DNA of 47,511 bases from a virus (Duplodnaviria; Heunggongvirae; Uroviricota; Caudoviricetes): IMG/VR virus record IMGVR_UViG_2541047920_000001; one strand, given 5' to 3'. The notes beneath the pieces were generated by a model. The model searched no databases and was not told the origin of the DNA. It saw only the letters and a program-made list of their open reading frames with translations. Position numbers and translations under genes: made by a program. Within the stretch, counting starts at the first letter, position 1, and each line of letters starts with the position of its first letter. Of the stretch, positions 36,099-45,208 are shown piece by piece.

Positions 36099-36117
36099 TG
36101 AAAAACGTTTTATGTGA

Positions 36118-36138
36118 AACCGCCTCCGGGCGGTTTTG
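36118..36138 (+). terminator. Hairpin plus T-tract between I and J
   Basis: CCGCC-TCCG-GGCGG followed by TTTTG. Confidence 0.35.
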
Positions 36139-36158
36139 TCGTTTATGGAGCGTTAGGA

Positions 36159-39100
36159 ATGGGTAAAGGCAGCAGTAAGGGGCATACTCCGCGCGAAGCG
36201 AAGGACAACCTGAAGTCCACGCAGTTGCTGAGTGTGATCGATGCCATCAGCGAAGGGCCGGTTGAAGGTCCGGTAGGTGGATTAAAAAGCGTGCTGCTGA
36301 ACAGTACGCCAGTGCTGGACATTGAGGGGAATACCAACATCTCCGGCGTCACGGTGGTGTTCCGGGCCGGTGAGCAGGAGCAAACACCGCCGGAGGGATT
36401 TGAATCCTCCGGCTCCGAGACGGTGCTGGGTACGGAAGTGAAATACGACACGCCGATCACCCGGACCATCACGTCGGCAAACATTGACCGACTGCGTATT
36501 ACCTTCGGCGTGCAGGCACTGGTGGAAACCACCTCAAAGGGGGACAGGAATCCGTCGGAAGTCCGCCTGCTGGTTCAGATACAACGTAACGGTGGCTGGG
36601 TGACGGAAAAAGACATCACCATTAAAGGCAAAACCACCTCACAGTATCTGGCCTCGGTGGTGGTGGGTAACCTGCCGCCGCGCCCGTTCAATATCCGGAT
36701 GCGCAGGATGACGCCGGACAGCACCACAGACCAGCTGCAGAACAAAACGCTCTGGTCGTCATACACCGAAATCATCGATGTGAAACAGTGCTACCCGAAC
36801 ACGGCACTGGTTGGCGTGCAGGTGGACTCGGAGCAGTTCGGCAGCCAGCAGGTGAGCCGTAATTATCATCTTCGCGGGCGCATTCTGCAGGTGCCGTCGA
36901 ACTATAACCCGCAGACGCGGCAATACAGCGGTATCTGGGACGGAACGTTAAAACCGGCATACAGCAACAACATGGCCTGGTGTCTGTGGGATATGCTGAC
37001 CCATCCGCGCTACGGCATGGGGAAACGTCTTGGTGCGGCGGATGTGGATAAATGGGCGCTGTATGTCATCGGCCAGAATTGCGACCAGTCGGTGCCGGAC
37101 GGCTTTGGCGGCACGGAGCCGCGCATCACCTGTAACGCTTACCTGACCACACAGCGCAAGGCGTGGGATGTGCTCAGTGATTTCTGCTCGGCGATGCGCT
37201 GTATGCCGGTATGGAACGGGCAGACGCTGACGTTCGTGCAGGACCGACCGTCGGATAAGGTGTGGACCTATAACCGCAGTAATGTGGTGATGCCGGATGA
37301 TGGCGCGCCGTTCCGCTACAGCTTCAGCGCCCTGAAGGACCGCCATAATGCCGTTGAGGTGAACTGGATTGACCCGAACAATGGCTGGGAGACGGCGACA
37401 GAGCTTGTTGAAGATACGCAGGCCATTGCCCGTTACGGTCGTAATGTCACGAAGATGGATGCCTTTGGCTGTACCAGCCGGGGGCAGGCGCACCGCGCCG
37501 GGCTGTGGCTGATTAAAACAGAACTGCTGGAAACGCAGACCGTGGACTTCAGCGTGGGCGCAGAAGGGCTTCGCCATGTACCGGGTGATGTTATTGAAAT
37601 CTGCGATGATGACTATGCCGGTATCAGCACCGGTGGGCGCGTGCTGGCGGTGAACAGCCAGACCCGGACGCTGACGCTCGACCGTGAAATCACGCTGCCA
37701 TCCTCCGGTACCACGCTGATAAGCCTGGTTGACGGAAGTGGCAATCCGGTCAGCGTGGAGGTTCACTCCGTCACCGACGGCGTGAAGGTGAAAGTGAGCC
37801 GTGTTCCTGACGGCGTTGCTGAATACAGCGTGTGGGGGCTGAAGCTGCCGACGCTGCGCCAGCGCCTGTTCCGCTGCGTGAGTATCCGTGAGAACGACGA
37901 CGGCACGTATGCCATCACCGCCGTGCAGCATGTACCGGAAAAAGAGGCCATCGTGGATAACGGGGCGCACTTTGACGGCGAACAGAGTGGCACGGTGAAT
38001 GGTGTCACGCCGCCAGCGGTGCAGCACCTGACCGCAGAAGTTACTGCAGACAGCGGGGAATATCAGGTGCTGGCGCGATGGGACACACCGAAGGTGGTGA
38101 AGGGCGTGAGCTTCCTGCTCCGTCTGACCGTAACAGCGGACGACGGCAGTGAGCGGCTGGTCAGCACGGCCCGGACGACGGAAACAACATACCGCTTCAG
38201 GCAGCTGGCGCTGGGGAACTACAGGCTGACAGTCCGGGCAGTAAATGCCTGGGGGCAGCAGGGAGACCCGGCGTCGGTATCGTTCCGGATTGCCGCACCG
38301 GCAGCGCCGTCACAGATTGAGCTGACTCCGGGCTATTTTCAGATAACCGCCACGCCGCATCTTGCGGTTTATGATCCGACGGTACAGTTTGAGTTCTGGT
38401 TCTCGGAAAAGCGGATTGCGGATATCAGGCAGGTTGAAACCACAGCACGCTATCTTGGCACGGCGCTGTACTGGATAGCCGCCAGTATCAATATCAAACC
38501 GGGCCATGATTATTATTTTTACATCCGCAGTGTGAACACCGTTGGCAAATCGGCATTTGTGGAGGCTGTTGGCCAGCCGAGTGATGATGCATCCGGCTAT
38601 CTGAATTTTTTCAAAGGAGAGATAGGGAAAACCCATCTGGCTCAGGAGCTGTGGACGCAGATTGATAACGGTCAGCTTGCGCCTGACCTGGCGGAAATCA
38701 GAACGTCCATCACGGATGTCAGTAATGAAATCACGCAGACCGTCAATAAGAAACTGGAAGACCAGAGTGCGGCAATCCAGCAGATACAGAAGGTTCAGGT
38801 TGATACAAATAATAACCTGAACAGCATGTGGGCTGTGAAGCTGCAGCAGATGCAGGACGGACGCCTTTATATCGCGGGTATTGGTGCCGGTATTGAGAAT
38901 ACCCCTGACGGTATGCAGAGTCAGGTGCTGCTGGCGGCGGACAGGATTGCGATGATTAATCCTGCGAATGGCAACACAAAACCGATGTTTGTTGGTCAGG
39001 GCGATCAGATATTCATGAACGAAGTGTTCCTGAAATATCTGACGGCTCCCACCATTACCAGCGGCGGTAATCCTCCGGCATTTTCCCTGACACCGGACGG

Positions 39101-39638
39101 GCGGCTGACGGCGAAAAATGCCGATATTAGCGGTAACGTGAATGCGAACTCCGGGACGCTCAACAACGTCACGATTAACGAGAACTGCCGGGTTCTGGGA
39201 AAACTGTCCGCGAACCAGATTGAAGGCGATCTCGTTAAAACAGTGGGCAAAGCTTTCCCCCGGGACTCCCGTGCACCGGAACGGTGGCCATCAGGGACCA
39301 TTACCGTCAGGGTTTATGACGATCAGCCGTTTGACCGGCAGATTGTTATTCCGGCGGTGGCATTCAGCGGCGCTAAACATGAGAGAGAGCATACTGATAT
39401 TTACTCCTCATGCCGTCTGATAGTGCGGAAAAACGGTGCTGAAATTTATAACCGTACCGCGCTGGATAATACGCTGATTTACAGTGGCGTTATTGATATG
39501 CCTGCCGGTCACGGTCACATGACGCTGGAGTTTTCGGTGTCAGCATGGCTGGTAAATGACTGGTATCCCACAGCAAGTATCAGCGATCTGCTGGTTGTGG
39601 TGATGAAGAAAGCCACCGCAGGCATCAGTATCAGCTGA
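36159..39638 (+). CDS. Tail tip / host-specificity protein J
   Basis: About 1159 aa from [26 protein letters not shown]…, long identity to lambda gpJ N-terminal and central regions as recalled; C-terminal about 150 aa diverge. Confidence 0.9.
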
Positions 39639-39666
39639 ATTTTATAACCCATATACGGGCGCCAGA

Positions 39667-39691
39667 AATGGCGCCTTTTTTATTGCAGAAA
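39667..39691 (+). terminator. Rho-independent terminator after J
   Basis: GGGCGCC-AGAAAT-GGCGCC followed by TTTTTT. Confidence 0.7.
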
Positions 39692-39705: not shown

Positions 39706-40305
39706 ATGCGTAAAGTTTGTGCCGCCATTTTTTCCGCAGCCATTTGTCTGGCCGTATCCGGTGCGCCTGCATGGGCATCTGAACATCAGTCCACGCTGAG
39801 CGCGGGGTATCTTCATGCCTCGACGAACGTTCCCGGCAGCGATGATCTGAACGGGATTAACGTGAAATACCGTTATGAGTTTACGGACACACTGGGGATG
39901 GTGACGTCATTCAGCTATGCAGGAGACAAGAATCGCCAGCTTACCCGTTACAGCGATACCCGCTGGCATGAAGATTCCGTGCGTAACCGCTGGTTCAGCG
40001 TGATGGTGGGGCCGTCTGTGCGCGTGAATGAATGGTTCAGCGCGTATGCGATGGCGGGTATGGCTTACAGCCGTGTTTCGACTTTCTCCGGAGATTATAT
40101 CCGCGTAACTGACAACAAGGGGAAAACGCACGATGTGCTGACCGGAAGTGATGACGGTCGCCACAGCGACACGTCTCTGGCATGGGGGGCTGGCGTGCAG
40201 TTTAACCCGACCGAATCCGTGGCCATTGATATTGCTTATGAAGGTTCCGGCAGTGGCGACTGGCGCACTGACGGTTTCATCGTTGGTGTCGGTTATAAAT
40301 TCTGA
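39706..40305 (+). CDS. lom: Lom-like outer-membrane beta-barrel protein (Ail/PagC/OmpX family)
   Basis: 199 aa with signal peptide and C-terminal …GVGYKF; own terminators on both sides (moron). Confidence 0.8.
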
Positions 40306-40333
40306 TTAGCCAGGTAACACAGTGTTATGACAG

Positions 40334-40357
40334 CCCGCCGGTTCAGGCGGGCTTTTT
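40334..40357 (+). terminator. Rho-independent terminator after lom
   Basis: GCCCGCC-GGTTCAG-GCGGGC followed by TTTTTT. Confidence 0.7.
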
Positions 40358-40369
40358 TGTGGAGTGGAT

Positions 40370-42775
40370 ATGGCAGCAGTAAAAATCTCAGGTGTGCTGA
40401 AAGATGGTGCGGGAAAACCAATACAGAACTGCACTATTCAACTGAAGGCAAAGCGTAACAGCACCACGGTACTGGTCAACACAGTGGCCTCTGAAAATCC
40501 GGATGAAGCCGGGCGTTACAGCATGGATGTTGAGTATGGCCAGTACAGCGTCACCCTGCTGGTTGAAGGTTTTCCGCCTTCACATGCCGGAACCATTACC
40601 GTCTATGAAGGTTCCAGACCAGGTACGCTGAATGATTTTCTCGGTGCCATGACGGAAGATGATGTCATGCCGGAGGCATTGCGTCGTTTTGAGGAAATGG
40701 TGGAAGAAGCGGCACGCAACGCTGAAGCCGCCTCTCAGAGCGCAGCGGCGGCAAAGAAATCCGAAACTGCAGCGGCATCATCGAAGAACGCGGCGAAAAC
40801 CTCAGAAACGAATGCAGCTAACAGCGCACAGGCGGCAGCGGCCTCGCAGACTGCATCGGCAAACTCCGCAACAGCAGCTAAAAAATCAGAAACCAACGCG
40901 AAAAATAGCGAGACAGCCGCAACGACAAGCGAAACCAACGCAAAGTCCAGCCAGACGGCAGCGAAGACCAGCGAAACGAATGCTAAAGCCAGTGAAACTG
41001 CAGCAAAAAACAGCCAGGTTTCAGCAGCCCAAAGCGAGAGCGCGGCAGCCGGTTCTGCGACTTCAGCAGCTGGATCAGCAACTGCTGCGGCTAACAGCCA
41101 GAAAGCTGCGAAGACGAGTGAAACTAACGCAAAGTCCAGCCAGACGGCAGCGAAGACCAGCGAAACGAATGCCAAAGCCAGTGAAACTGCGGCGAAAAGC
41201 AGTCAGGATGCAGCGGCCCAAAGCGAGAGTGCCGCAGCCAGTTCTGCAAGCGCGGCGGCTGCTTCTGCCACTGCATCAGCTAACAGTCAAAAAGCAGCAA
41301 AAACCAGTGAAACCAACGCAAAGGCGAGCGAGACTGCGGCGGCGAACTCGGCGCAAGCATCGGCAGCAAGCCAGACAGCAGCTAAAGCAAGTGAAGACGC
41401 AGCCAGAGAGTATGCAAGCCAGGCAGCGGAGCCGTATAAACAAGTTTTGCAGCCGTTGCCCGATGTGTGGATACCGTTTAATGATTCACTGGATATGATT
41501 ACGGGCTTTTCGCCATCATATAAAAAAATTGTTATTGGCGACGATGAAATAACAATGCCTGGCGACAAGATTGTAAAGTTTAAACGCGCATCGAAAGCAA
41601 CTTACATTAATAAATCTGGTGTGCTGACAGAGGCTGCCATTGACGAGCCACGATTTGAACGTGATGGCCTGCTTATTGAGGGGCAAAGAACTAACCTGCT
41701 AATCAATTCAACAAATCCGACTAAATGGAACAAGTCGTCAAATATGATCTTAAGTGCATCAGGTGTAGATGATTTCGGATTCCAGTACGCAAAATTTACA
41801 TTAAAACCAGAAATGGTAGGGCAAATTTCAGCGATTAACATAGTAACCGTTTCCGGCAGTAAAGGTTTTGATGTAACAGGCGGAGAAAAGTATGTAACCA
41901 TATCATGCAGGGTGCAAAGTGGCACTCCAAATTTAAGATGCCGATTACGATTTGAAAACTATGATGGTTCTACCTACACATTCTTAGGTGACGCTTACTT
42001 AAATACGACAGATTTATCTATTGATAAGACGGGTGGTGCCGCTAATCGCATTACTGCAAGAGCTGTTAAAGATGAAGCAAGCAAATGGATCTTTTTTGAG
42101 GCGACAATTAAGGCACTTGATACAGAAAATATGATAGGTGGAATGGTTCAGTATGCCCCGGCAAAAGGAGTGGGCACTGGCGCGGATGATTATATTTATA
42201 TTGCGACCCCTCAAGTTGAAGGTGGGGCATGCGCTTCATCGTTTATTATAACAGGCGCATCCCCTGTAACACGCGCCAGCGATATTGTAACGGTCCCCAT
42301 TTCTCTAAATTGGTGCAATCCCGCTATTAGTTCATTAGCAGAAGTTAATACCAATTGGGATGAATCGCCAAACAAAGAAGGTAGCGCACGTATTCTTAAT
42401 ATTTCCACTACGGGAGATACAACTGAAATTGCAGATGAAAGTTATATGTATTTGGGGTATACATCTTTGGGAGCACGCGCAATCATTACAAATGGTAAAG
42501 GCACTAAAATAGAATATAAAAGCGTTATAGAACGACCAGAGAGAAAAAGCATTATCGGCTTTAGATTCACAGAAAGTCGAGAATTGTGTGTTGTGGTTAA
42601 CGGTAATATTGGTGCTAAGGTAGTTTCTCCTTATAAAAAACACAAATATACAGGAGGCTTCATTAATATTGGTGGTCAATCATCATCCGGCAACCGTCAC
42701 CTATTTGGACACGTTCGAAATCTGCGTATTTGGCACAAGGCATTGACTGATGCTCAGATGGGGGAGTCAATCTAA
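40370..42775 (+). CDS. Side tail fibre protein (Stf-like) with repeat-rich shaft and distinct low-GC C-terminal receptor-binding module
   Basis: About 801 aa; N-terminus matches lambda Stf (MAVKISGVLKDGAGKPIQNCTIQLKA…); central 14-residue KTSETNAK(A/S)SETAA-type repeats; last about 400 aa AT-rich, ending in a LamG-like …LFGHVRNLRIWHKAL… segment. Confidence 0.8.
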   Translation: MAAVKISGVLKDGAGKPIQNCTIQLKAKRNSTTVLVNTVASENPDEAGRYSMDVEYGQYSVTLLVEGFPPSHAGTITVYEGSRPGTLNDFLGAMTEDDVMPEALRRFEEMVEEAARNAEAASQSAAAAKKSETAAASSKNAAKTSETNAANSAQAAAASQTASANSATAAKKSETNAKNSETAATTSETNAKSSQTAAKTSETNAKASETAAKNSQVSAAQSESAAAGSATSAAGSATAAANSQKAAKTSETNAKSSQTAAKTSETNAKASETAAKSSQDAAAQSESAAASSASAAAASATASANSQKAAKTSETNAKASETAAANSAQASAASQTAAKASEDAAREYASQAAEPYKQVLQPLPDVWIPFNDSLDMITGFSPSYKKIVIGDDEITMPGDKIVKFKRASKATYINKSGVLTEAAIDEPRFERDGLLIEGQRTNLLINSTNPTKWNKSSNMILSASGVDDFGFQYAKFTLKPEMVGQISAINIVTVSGSKGFDVTGGEKYVTISCRVQSGTPNLRCRLRFENYDGSTYTFLGDAYLNTTDLSIDKTGGAANRITARAVKDEASKWIFFEATIKALDTENMIGGMVQYAPAKGVGTGADDYIYIATPQVEGGACASSFIITGASPVTRASDIVTVPISLNWCNPAISSLAEVNTNWDESPNKEGSARILNISTTGDTTEIADESYMYLGYTSLGARAIITNGKGTKIEYKSVIERPERKSIIGFRFTESRELCVVVNGNIGAKVVSPYKKHKYTGGFINIGGQSSSGNRHLFGHVRNLRIWHKALTDAQMGESI
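40770..41400 (+). repeat. Imperfect tandem coding repeats (about 42 bp units) within the stf shaft
   Basis: Repeated units such as …gcgaagaccagcgaaacgaatgc(t/c)aaagccagtgaaactgc… seen many times; also generates spurious alternative-frame ORFs. Confidence 0.7.
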
Positions 42776-43056
42776 TGAAAGATTTAACACTCAAATTTGC
42801 CGACAGGGCCGACTTTTCGGCCTTTATGGGAAGTATTGGCTATTATAATGACGAGTCGATGCAGGATGATATTCTGATTGATGTGATAGGTAACGTGTAC
42901 AAAGAAACCGGAGAGCTGACTGAAGATGGCGAACCGGTATGTGTTAAGGAAGATGGATATTTTGTAAACGTGCGCATTATTAAGGATACGCAAATATCGT
43001 CATTATTCGATGAATACGCGGTTGCTGTTGAGCATCAACTTCGTGGCTGGATGTGA
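42775..43056 (+). CDS. Hypothetical acidic protein downstream of stf (possible fibre accessory or chaperone)
   Basis: 93-aa ORF whose start overlaps the stf stop (TAATG); low GC; no similarity to Tfa noted. Confidence 0.45.
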   Translation: MKDLTLKFADRADFSAFMGSIGYYNDESMQDDILIDVIGNVYKETGELTEDGEPVCVKEDGYFVNVRIIKDTQISSLFDEYAVAVEHQLRGWM

Positions 43057-43065
43057 GGTAGAGAA

Positions 43066-43770
43066 ATGGCTACATCAACAGTAATTCCGGGAGACATCAC
43101 CACGCTGAAGGGAGATGTTAGTAAAGCAAAGGAAGATATTTCCTCTATTAACGGAAAAGTATCAACGCTTCAGACTGATATGGCCAGTGCAAAGCAGGAT
43201 ATCAGCACCAGATACACAAAAACTGAAGTTGATAATAAGCTGAAAAACAAAGTGGAAGTGAACGATCTGGAAAGTGGTCGTTATGGCGGAGATTTTTACC
43301 CGCTGACTGGCCGTGAAGCGTTTTATTTATGGGGATTGGGCACAACTACAGCGGCGGCAAATCTTTATCTTAATCCTGACCCTGCAATTTCGTCTGTGCT
43401 GCGGTCAACATCGTCTATCCGCTATAAACATTCAGTAGAGACGATAGATTCAGAGCACGCCGATCTCATTTTCAGGATGCGCCCTGTGTGGTACAGGTCG
43501 CAATGCGAAAATGACAGGCGTGACTGGGGATTCTATGGATTGATTGCCGAGGAAGTTGGAGAAATTGCCCCTCAGTTTGTTCACTGGCGACCAGCCAACG
43601 AAGATGATGCACCGGAAACCATTTCCAGCAATGGCCTTGTTGCCGAAGGTGTAATGTACGAACGTCTGGTTGTTCCACTGATTCACCATATCCAGAAGCT
43701 GACTGAAAGAGTTGATGAACTTGAGTCAGAATTAAAGTTGTTATCCGTTTCCCGAAGCGATATCGGATAA
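43066..43770 (+). CDS. Coiled-coil protein with C-terminal S74-type intramolecular-chaperone (auto-processing) domain motif
   Basis: 234 aa; C-terminal …SSIRYKHSVETID…RMRPVWYRSQ…WGFYGLIAEEVGEIAPQFV…ELESELKLL follows the S-x-R-x-K … RPV.Y … G.IAEEV pattern of tail-fibre/endosialidase C-terminal chaperone domains. Confidence 0.5.
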   Translation: MATSTVIPGDITTLKGDVSKAKEDISSINGKVSTLQTDMASAKQDISTRYTKTEVDNKLKNKVEVNDLESGRYGGDFYPLTGREAFYLWGLGTTTAAANLYLNPDPAISSVLRSTSSIRYKHSVETIDSEHADLIFRMRPVWYRSQCENDRRDWGFYGLIAEEVGEIAPQFVHWRPANEDDAPETISSNGLVAEGVMYERLVVPLIHHIQKLTERVDELESELKLLSVSRSDIG

Positions 43771-43780
43771 AGGAGGCGTA

Positions 43781-44074
43781 ATGGATATAACACCTTTCCT
43801 TCATGCACTTTGTGCTGTGGCTGCGCAGGTACTGGTTGGTCTTTTTACCGGAAACTGGGCTTACGGGGCGATAGCTGGTTGTACGTTCTTCATTGCGCGT
43901 GAACATACCCAGGCAGAATATCGCTGGATTGAAATGTTCGGGCATGGCAAGCGTATGAATATGCCGTGGTGGGGCGGTTTTGATCCGCGTGCGTGGGATG
44001 TGGCAAGCCTGATGGATTTTGCTGTGCCGGTGGTGGCGTGTCTGCTGGTCTGGCTGTTGGTTAATCGTGGGTGA
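43781..44074 (+). CDS. Small integral membrane protein (hypothetical; candidate moron)
   Basis: 97 aa with two or three hydrophobic segments; AGGAGG RBS; host-like GC. Confidence 0.5.
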   Translation: MDITPFLHALCAVAAQVLVGLFTGNWAYGAIAGCTFFIAREHTQAEYRWIEMFGHGKRMNMPWWGGFDPRAWDVASLMDFAVPVVACLLVWLLVNRG

Positions 44075-44084
44075 AAAAAGGTGA

Positions 44085-44204
44085 GCTGTATATGCAACGG
44101 AGGAAGAAACCTCGTTGCGGGAAGCCTGGAAGAAGTATCGGGTGTTGCTGAACCGTGTTGATACGTCAACTGCACAGGATATTGAATGGCCAGCACTGCC
44201 GTAG
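44085..44204 (+). pseudogene. 3' remnant of a tail fibre assembly (tfa) gene
   Basis: Open frame without a start codon encoding …[34 protein letters not shown], the conserved C-terminal end of Tfa proteins; begins directly after a stop codon. Confidence 0.6.
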
Positions 44205-44301
44205 GGTAAAACATATAAATTCTATAATTAGATGTATCTTTCCATTTACGGCAAGGAAGGGGGCTTGGAAGACGTAAGGCATCTCACACCGAGATTATTT
44301 T

Positions 44302-44892
44302 TTATATGTCAGGTGTCTGAAGTTTTGCTTTGGCTCTTAAAATGGTTTGCCGCGAGGTTTTGAATTCCCGGGCAATGGCACTTATACTTACACCTGACTT
44401 AATCCGTTCGAATACCACCTGTTTCTGTTCTTCATTTAACACAGGTGGTCGACCAAAACGTTTCCCTGCGCCCCGGGCTCTTACTATCCCGGAATGAGTG
44501 CGTTCAAGTAAAAGGTCTCGTTCAAATTCAGCGACTGCTGAAATTACTTGCATCATCATTTTTCCTGTTGGACTGGTCAGGTCAATGCCCCCCAATGCTA
44601 AGCAATGCACTCTGATACCTGTTTCGGTCAGTTGTTCCACTGTTTTCCTGATATCCATTGCATTACAACCAAGGCGATCCAGTTTTGTCACAATCAATTG
44701 ATCACCACATTTCAGGCGAGCAAGCAACCGGTTAAAACCAGGACGCTCACTGGTTGCTGCTGAGCCGCTAATGTGTTCTTCGATTATTTGCTGAGGTTTG
44801 ATTTTAAAACCTGCACTTTCGATTTCCCGGCGTTGATTTTCGGTGGTCTGATCCAGCGTTGATATCCGACAGTAAGCAAAAATTCGAGACAT
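44302..44892 (-). CDS. pin: Pin-type serine DNA invertase (Hin/Gin/Pin family)
   Basis: 196 aa; N-terminal catalytic …[11 protein letters not shown]… (Ser nucleophile context), C-terminal HTH; adjacent to tail-fibre genes. Confidence 0.9.
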
Positions 44893-45208
44893 AGTGAGAC
44901 TCTATACGAAATTGGTGTTCATATCATAATGCATCTCAGAAAATAATTTTGATTATTTTTGTGCATGTTTGTATGTACACGTTCGAAAATAAACGAATGC
45001 GTATGCAACCCCGTAATTTTGGTGAGACCCAAAATCGATTTTGTGAAAAATGGCTTTAACTCGGTTTGTTTTTCGAGTTCCGGGCGGACTCAAGGAAGAA
45101 GAATAGTGTTGCGTGTTATTTTAACCAGATTTCAAGTTGTTTGGTCGTGGAAAAGTGGAGCAAAATGTTGTTAAAGTGGAAAAATGATAAAAAAGTAAGT
45201 TTATTATA

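Follow-up and report, generated by a model that had tools for sequence, protein, structure and literature searches.

A stand-alone S74 chaperone-domain protein of a lambdoid prophage, probably a minimal distal subunit of a two-tier side fibre

The DNA analysed here (the window) is the IMG/VR virus record IMGVR_UViG_2541047920_000001, 47,511 nucleotides long, which is a complete-looking lambdoid prophage integrated within ydfJ, at the Qin site. In its side-fibre region, the third gene of a packed run is an open reading frame of 234 codons. Its product, ORF234, carries an S74-type intramolecular chaperone (IMC) domain at its C-terminus. ORF234 is probably the minimal distal subunit of a two-tier side fibre, folded by its IMC and self-cleaving after Ser116. 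In the proposed mechanism, the IMC (residues 117–234) would gather three ORF234 chains, with folding proceeding from the C-terminus, and the Ser116/Lys121 dyad would then cut each chain after Ser116 and free the IMC. The resulting mature trimer, with chains of 116 residues, would consist of an N-terminal peptide (residues 1–15), a coiled-coil stalk of ~5 nm (residues 10–48) and a tip (residues 50–116). The N-terminal peptide would dock the trimer on the proximal fibre encoded by gene 1 of the run (Stf803), possibly together with the product of gene 2, and the docked ORF234 would act as a second, conserved distal tip beside the hypervariable lectin domains of gene 1. An earlier reading of the sequence by itself (the original prediction) had suggested a truncated second fibre or a trans-acting or self-processing accessory; of these, a second fibre comes closest, and its being truncated is not supported.

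The C-terminal half of ORF234 is a genuine S74-type IMC domain. All four motifs on which the original prediction had based an S74-type signature are found (S117-I-R-Y-K121, RPVWY at 139–143, GLIAEEV at 158–164 and ELESELKLL at 218–226). The HMMER-style comparison with Pfam PF13884 (Peptidase_S74) that it had proposed is significant, with a score of 27.2 bits against the curated gathering cut-off of 22 and an E-value of 4.7e-6, and the match spans residues 116–172, corresponding to profile positions 1–57 of 58. No Tfa family was found among the Pfam, NCBIfam and PHROG matches of ORF234. The IMC follows a heptad stalk and a short tip, and the part that precedes it is unusually short (116 residues). 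The best solved relative in sequence is a chain of a T5-like L-shaped tail fibre (PDB 8hqz_d, 1076 residues, E 1.2e-7), with similarity that covers a shaft motif ('TYTKTEVD') and the chaperone domain alike.

The AlphaFold2 model of ORF234, a monomer built on 43 homologues, has a mean predicted local distance difference test score (pLDDT) of 72.8. It displays a single helix at residues 11–47 (pLDDT 77–88) and a confident domain at ~121–233 (pLDDT about 78–95, and about 87–95 for residues 131–230). Residues 63–110 are of low confidence, as expected for a monomer model were the fold an intertwined trimer. When the model was compared to the PDB with Foldseek, the top eleven matches were all solved IMCs (E <0.35), among them the ICA domain of MyRF (7dc3, E 1.7e-5, probability 1.0), 3gud and 3gw6, and the next match had an E-value of 1.8.

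The S-x-R-x-K dyad noted originally is present as a motif, with the correction that the nucleophile is placed at Ser116, one residue before Ser117. Alignments to the start of the Pfam profile, to 8hqz_d and to other alleles of the gene agree on this position, and the predicted cut therefore lies between Ser116 and Ser117. Ser116 and Lys121 (+5) match the Ser and Lys of 'TSGIEYK' in 8hqz_d and of 'SDRDLK' in other alleles; their counterparts in the K1F endosialidase are the catalytic residues S911 and K916. Among 43 homologues, Lys121 is invariant and Ser116 is conserved in at least 90%. Since the dyad is conserved, ORF234 is likely self-processing. Cleavage at the predicted bond would convert the 26.2-kDa chain into a mature part of 12.5 kDa and an IMC of 13.7 kDa (computed masses).

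ORF234 is a common and intact gene. Its DNA is present in 746 of 5,426 complete Escherichia coli genomes, 740 of which cover at least 80% of the length, and these copies are labelled throughout as a stand-alone 'tail fiber domain-containing protein' by the Prokaryotic Genome Annotation Pipeline. The nearest protein cluster at 90% identity contains 2,928 member sequences. Moreover, ~50 virulent T1-like phages have a stand-alone homologue of 225–235 residues that is 57–62% identical. In the databases, a protein this short is thus not unusual, contrary to what the original prediction had supposed. Eight copies, from chromosomes and from the isolated phages PhiR49_1, IdasGreatGrand and PhiR55_1, are all intact without frameshifts, and their pairwise ratios of nonsynonymous to synonymous substitution rates (dN/dS) are 0.13–0.30. 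Purifying selection acts on both parts of the protein, with dN/dS of 0.15–0.37 for the mature half and 0.08–0.22 for the IMC half. The three phages are deposited as complete genomes with named propagation hosts.

The N-terminal heptad-like region of the original prediction consists of clean heptads over residues 10–48 (DITTLKG / DVSKAKE / DISSING / KVSTLQT / DMASAKQ, about five and a half in all). In an alignment of the short family to which ORF234 belongs, the stalk differs in length by whole heptads, with indels of 7 and 28 residues. The stalk also shows a weak match to the coiled coil of the P22 tail needle (PDB 4lin). In the tip region, G71, L80, T93, T94, N99, P104, V111 and R113–S116 are invariant within the family.

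The tip and IMC of ORF234 also occur as the ends of much longer fibres. An exhaustive HMMER search of 1.84 billion representative proteins gave 3,583 relatives at E ≤ 0.001. Among those closest over the full length are one-piece fibres of 539–1243 residues, in which the equivalent of ORF234 residues ~50–224 (55–61% identity) forms the extreme C-terminus. Two of these, P0185 and P0187, are lambdoid side fibres (Stf) with a phage_tail_N anchor, and others carry Gp34_trimer, gp37_C or tail-collar domains at the N-terminus. The alignment of ORF234 to phrog_3299 at profile positions 1147–1384 of 1385 is explained by the same relationship, since residues 50–224 are also the end of one-piece fibres. 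The similarity begins at Tyr50; therefore, only the stand-alone form has the docking motif and heptads, and ORF234 is not simply the 3' end of a one-piece fibre gene. Residues 1–49 do not correspond to an internal segment of these fibres, which argues against the 3' fragment of a disrupted larger gene that the original prediction had considered.

ORF234 belongs to a conserved three-gene cassette, in which a lectin-tipped fibre gene (gene 1) is followed by a gene for ~92 residues (gene 2) and then by gene 3, ORF234 and its counterparts always being third. The distal two-thirds of gene 1 and the whole of genes 2 and 3 are homologous and collinear in lambdoid, Drexlerviridae, Queuovirinae, T5-like and Dhillonvirus phages. 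Ten annotated phage loci show this order, as do 77 of 80 IMG/VR loci with a gene 2 of at least 91% identity to that of the window; the other three loci run off the contig edge. A functional link between ORF234 and the adjacent receptor-binding fibre, as the original prediction had suggested, is supported. In KarlJaspers and SECphi27, the ORF234 homologue follows a lateral fibre gene and a 92-residue gene. Their fibres share 41–59% identity with Stf803 residues 245–803, a range that includes the T5-like lateral fibres, and their 92-residue proteins share 46–52% identity with the gene 2 product of the window, orf93. The N-termini of the fibres differ from that of Stf803, as expected for phage-specific anchors. 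Other carriers of the cassette are the lambdoid phages HannyBb and the telomere-bearing PhiR46_1, Queuovirinae phage JenP2, the T5-like phages HMD-P4 and IrisVonRoten, and a Dhillonvirus. For the variants P0033 and P0041, the genes are at contig ends and their upstream neighbours are outside the contig. Some 20 records under the name 'Campylobacter phage' (MG0656xx) have either an identity of at least 92% to E. coli Hanrivervirus DNA or rV5-like E. coli fibre genes, and they look like mislabelled or contaminant assemblies.

Gene 3 exists as alleles of 225–235 (the ORF234 type, or short allele), 293, 333–348 and 574 residues. They are alike in the first 15–48 residues only, apart from the general S74 fold in which most of them end, and their middles are unrelated. 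Gene 3 of the window opens with MATSTVIPGDITTLK, which fits the pattern M-[AV]-T-x-T-x-I-P-x-D-I-x-x-L-K at residue 1, and the same pattern is matched by gene 3 in 75 of the 77 IMG/VR loci. Across seven alleles from four lineages, M1, T3, T5, I7, P8, D10, I11, L14 and K15 do not vary, and the motif is too invariant to carry a signal of co-variation with genes 1 and 2. The profiles phrog_4563 and phrog_19752 cover only residues 1–32 of ORF234, at their own positions 1–32. With its full length, its dN/dS of 0.13–0.30 and a motif that starts every allele in at least five phage lineages, ORF234 is not a truncated protein. Gene 3 of the Dhillonvirus LM40P1 (L104:3770-4651, an unannotated record) has the motif (MVTKTNIPADITALK) together with PF25670 ('Phage tail protein C-terminal domain') and no S74 domain, and the docking motif therefore does not depend on IMC-type folding. 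A constant N-terminal peptide combined with interchangeable distal parts suggests a build of subunits that plug into a common socket.

Gene 3 in the 80 IMG/VR loci is the short allele in 30 cases and an allele of ~346 residues in 47, with three at a contig edge. Since both alleles are found beside closely related copies of gene 2, gene 3 swaps independently of its neighbours. Across 74 close prophage loci, the 400 C-terminal residues of gene 1 form 13 clusters under 90% identity; the short allele occurs with seven of these tip clusters and the long allele with ten, and both alleles are present in four, so that gene 3 does not follow the tip of gene 1. Two of the 47 copies of the long allele are truncated (90 and 189 residues), compared to none of the 30 copies of the short allele (227–241 residues).

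Stf803, the gene 1 product, starts with a phage_tail_N anchor (PF08400, 223.9 bits, residues 5–134), followed by an Ala/Ser-rich shaft (~110–350), a conserved junction (351–450), hypervariable lectin-type domains (451–775) and a LamG-like end. In a profile of 19 fibres from six phage groups, the junction is 82–89% conserved, compared to 23–63% per 25-residue block in the lectin region, and the last 28 residues (776–803), which are LamG-like, are conserved even between phage families. Residues 437–638 match NF048003 (GTA_spike_fiber), and the KarlJaspers homologue has a weak Laminin_G_3 match under the Pfam cut-off. The junction is a candidate socket for the products of genes 2 and 3. The shaft at residues ~115–350 (40700–41400, plus strand) is composed of degenerate Ala/Ser/Thr-rich repeats (…KTSETNAKASETAAK…), which yield long spurious open reading frames in other frames and on the opposite strand.

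The gene 2 product, orf93, belongs to phrog_1361 (E 2.7e-44). Homologues with 38–94% identity directly follow gene 1 in every module examined, and gene 2 is present in 181 phage records and in 987 of the 5,426 E. coli genomes. It follows the fibre gene in lambdoid, T1-like, T5-like, Queuovirinae, Dhillonvirus and rV5-like phages, even where gene 3 is missing, which makes orf93 the most constant partner of the lectin-tipped fibres. Its role could be that of the module's actual assembly factor or adaptor. AlphaFold2 gave an unusable model for orf93 (pLDDT 46, from 23 sequences of 82–97% identity), and a full-text search of the literature gave no experiment on either a short stand-alone S74 protein or the 92-residue protein; the one relevant item is the 2025 BASEL model of the 574-residue allele.

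Several points weigh against ORF234 as a distal fibre subunit. Its mature part is very small. The lambdoid and T1-like forms of its tip share 60% identity (dN/dS about 0.2), a degree of conservation unlike that of typical receptor-binding tips, which are hypervariable; for this reason, the tip of ORF234 possibly binds no receptor. Instead of setting the host range, the tip may have a structural role or an invariant binding target. The gene 3 allele is strongly, although not completely, associated with the tip type of gene 1, an association that may stem from co-adaptation and not solely from linkage. In the BASEL collection, the T1-like homologues are given the annotation 'putative lateral tail fiber chaperone' by its authors; this label is an annotation, for which a literature search gave no experimental support. 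In E. coli BL21-Gold(DE3) (NC_012947.1 2191640-2204344), ORF234 persists intact, as do the genes for 93 and 97 residues, despite a fibre gene at the Qin site that is cut by IS3; the intactness of ORF234 in this strain is uninformative on function. Finally, trimerisation, autocleavage, docking, the docking partner, incorporation into the virion and receptor binding by the tip are steps that we infer.

An alternative is a structural end-cap, a degenerate distal module that still docks and folds by its IMC, has lost any receptor-binding domain, and only closes or stabilises the end of the proximal fibre. This explanation overlaps the distal-subunit reading and differs from it only on whether the tip binds anything. 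It fits the mere ~50 residues between the stalk and the cleavage site, the conservation of this stretch in place of hypervariability, the extra domains of longer alleles that are missing from the short one, and the location of the hypervariable part of the module in the lectin region of gene 1. The same tip, however, ends long fibres of several architectures and is thus a generally used fibre end; the constraint on the mature half (dN/dS 0.15–0.37) does not separate a binding from a structural role. A pure end-cap seems rather unlikely to us. A trans-acting assembly chaperone, the other option of the original prediction, would be a non-virion protein whose IMC-driven trimer templates or nucleates the trimerisation of Stf803 and is then discarded. 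The T1-like labels ('putative lateral tail fiber chaperone' or 'chaperone of endosialidase') and the encoding of gene 3 always just downstream of the fibre gene speak for such a helper. Stf803 ends in lectin domains of a type that folds as one chain, neither a Tfa nor an IMC is recognisable there, and a conserved short allele next to a varying gene 1 tip would suit a helper that acts on a conserved part of gene 1. Nevertheless, phage 21 and ev207 have genes 1 and 2 without gene 3; for phage 21, tblastn with nine alleles and the family hidden Markov model on a six-frame translation gave chance-level matches only (the model scores 337 bits on the window). Gene 3 is therefore dispensable for the rest of the cassette, with the caveat that the side fibre of phage 21 is assumed to be functional. 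In addition, a helper would not need a self-cleavage dyad or a stalk that varies by heptads, some alleles have large receptor-binding domains (Gp24 of IrisVonRoten) or a non-S74 C-terminus (the Dhillonvirus), the short allele accompanies at least seven tip types of gene 1, and one-piece fibres have this terminal cassette as a covalently joined end. A dedicated chaperone for the neighbouring fibre is thus unlikely.

A further reading is slightly more doubtful still. In it, the short allele binds no receptor and serves as a nucleus for trimerisation or a transient cap, powered by its IMC and detachable; its N-terminal peptide would co-assemble with the conserved junction of Stf803 (residues 351–450), alone or with the 92-residue protein. 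If this were true, an 'intramolecular' chaperone would act between polypeptides and serve a partner that has no C-terminal trimerisation domain. By far the least probable explanation is a dead 3' remnant, which a disrupted longer fibre gene would have left when a new receptor-binding cassette entered stf by recombination. The resemblance of residues 50–224 to the C-termini of long fibres, the end-of-profile alignment to phrog_3299 and a true Tfa remnant at 44094–44204, which shows that the locus has been rearranged, would all be expected of such a remnant. Set against these are the low dN/dS and absence of frameshifts in the eight copies, the full length in 740 genomes, a Shine-Dalgarno sequence of its own, and residues 1–49, which are not found inside long fibres and match the N-termini of other stand-alone alleles of gene 3. 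Additionally, the cassette position is kept across virulent T1-like phages at ~60% identity.

Which strains are within reach of a phage is decided by its side and lateral fibres, and these are the parts exchanged in host-range engineering. The analysis places a common E. coli prophage gene (about one in seven complete genomes) in a portable fibre cassette of at least five phage groups, and the labels 'tail fiber domain-containing protein' and 'putative lateral tail fiber chaperone' are probably poor descriptions of its role. The 15-residue motif looks like a universal plug for distal tips and, if so, would offer a practical handle for tip swaps. The short allele would also be a compact test bed for IMC-driven folding and self-cleavage, with a substrate of 116 residues.

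The features of the locus are listed in Table 1. Upstream of the fibre module are J (36114–39638) and lom (39706–40305), followed by four tightly packed genes on the plus strand. No promoter-like or terminator-like site was found between stf and ORF234. Strong terminator-like hairpins are located on either side of lom, between J and stf (39657–39676 and 40332–40353, plus strand), and this is the layout of an independently expressed moron within a late operon. The last gene of the run, orf97, differs at only three residues from CPT_21_24 of phage 21, which is annotated as a putative membrane protein with two transmembrane domains. It follows the fibre module in lambdoid phages with or without gene 3, including phage 21 and ev207, and is absent from the T1-like, T5-like and Queuovirinae modules examined. 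Because orf97 accompanies the module in lambdoid phages only, it is probably not a fibre component; it is possibly a moron or an exclusion function. NCBIfam contains no model that matches ORF234, orf93 or orf97. Beyond the Tfa stub are pinQ (minus strand), ydfK, ynfT and the truncated ydfJ. The presence of pinQ raised the possibility that ORF234 lies in an invertible segment; a search for inverted repeats over 40300–45000 gave only short arms, 73–88% complementary, in unrelated places, and this possibility was rejected. The true Tfa remnant just downstream indicates that the locus has undergone rearrangement, and pinQ together with the stub seems to be what is left of an earlier invertible Stf-Tfa cassette, overwritten when the three-gene module came in.

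Table 1. Features of the fibre module and its downstream flank, in window positions
Feature	Position	Strand	Remarks
Gene 1, side tail fibre Stf803 (stf)	40364..42775	+	803 residues
Gene 2, conserved protein orf93	42775..43056	+	93 residues; phrog_1361; start overlaps stf stop (TAATG)
Shine-Dalgarno GAGG of ORF234	43055..43058	+	7 nt before ATG; sequence read: TGAGGTAGAGAAATG
Gene 3, ORF234	43066..43770	+	234 residues; ATG start; stop codon included
ORF234 residues 1–15, N-terminal motif	43066..43110	+	M-A-T-S-T-V-I-P-G-D-I-T-T-L-K; proposed docking peptide
ORF234 residues 10–48, heptad-repeat stalk	43093..43209	+	predicted trimeric coiled coil
ORF234 residues 50–116, shaft motif and short tip	43213..43413	+	'YTKTEVDNKL' shaft motif; distal end if cleaved
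ORF234 codons S116-S117-I-R-Y-K121	43411..43428	+	predicted Ser/Lys dyad; scissile bond S116|S117
ORF234 residues 117–234, IMC domain	43414..43767	+	long C-terminal helix, residues 198–233
orf97, small membrane protein	43781..44074	+	97 residues; phrog_1443; own AGGAGG Shine-Dalgarno; last of packed run
Tfa gene stub	44094..44204	+	last ~36 codons; annotated as missing N-terminus
pinQ, intact Pin-type invertase	44302..44892	-	

Systems of this kind are already known, in the form of multi-subunit lateral fibres with IMC-terminated distal parts, and current ideas on fibre architecture are not overturned; ORF234 would be a fairly ordinary part of the machinery by which phages recognise hosts. ORF234 shares with the IMCs of the K1F endosialidase and the T5-type L-shaped fibre, and with the MyRF ICA domain, the profile, the +5 dyad, the predicted fold and the C-terminal helix. 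The IMC of the K1F endosialidase and of T5-type fibres ends chains of roughly 1,000 or more residues, whereas ORF234 would leave 116 residues if cleaved. The branched fibre of the T5-like phage DT57C, composed of LtfA and LtfB, is built from more than one polypeptide, each ending in an S74 IMC. LtfA contains the shaft motif 'TYTKTEVDSAL', which together with the LtfA IMC is the best match in sequence to ORF234 among solved structures, and the ltfA open reading frame (1076 residues) is as long as the PDB 8hqz_d chain; there is no gene 2 homologue between ltfA and ltfB. LtfB was considered as an analogue for docking and rejected, since its N-terminus does not contain the gene 3 motif and its mode of attachment therefore differs from that of ORF234.

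The closest comparison is IrisVonRoten (Bas32, T5-like), for which an AlphaFold-Multimer model places Gp24, as a distal fibre of 'T-shaped' form, on the proximal fibre Gp22, with a galectin-like domain of Gp22 protruding sideways (Humolli et al. 2025, PLoS Biol, PMC11990801). The placement of Gp24 is that of a predicted model, and the paper does not discuss the short allele or lambdoid versions. The gene order Gp22-Gp23-Gp24 is the same as in the cassette of the window; identity is 46% between Gp22 and Stf803 (residues 146–803) and 38% between Gp23 and orf93. Gp24 opens with the shared motif (MVTKTVIPTDITKLK), and its S74 IMC aligns with ORF234 residues 86–228. At 574 residues, Gp24 contains a Gp12-like receptor-binding domain and a T5-like tip, whereas ORF234 lacks the Gp12-like domain and most of the tip.

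In Drexlerviridae, KarlJaspers bas06_0035 and SECphi27 gp79 are true orthologues of ORF234, 59–61% identical over nearly the full length, with a similar size (225–235 residues) and the same place after a lectin-tipped fibre and a 92-residue gene. These orthologues are in virulent T1-like genomes beside a primase gene, whereas the ORF234 cassette follows J-lom. In P0185 and related one-piece fibres, the tip and IMC are covalently continuous with the anchor and shaft, and there is neither a docking motif nor a gene 2. A one-gene alternative to the cassette is also found at the T1-like locus of JakobBernoulli, which holds a single fibre gene of 741 residues, Gp36, described by the BASEL authors as a fibre with a fused IMC (PMC11990801).

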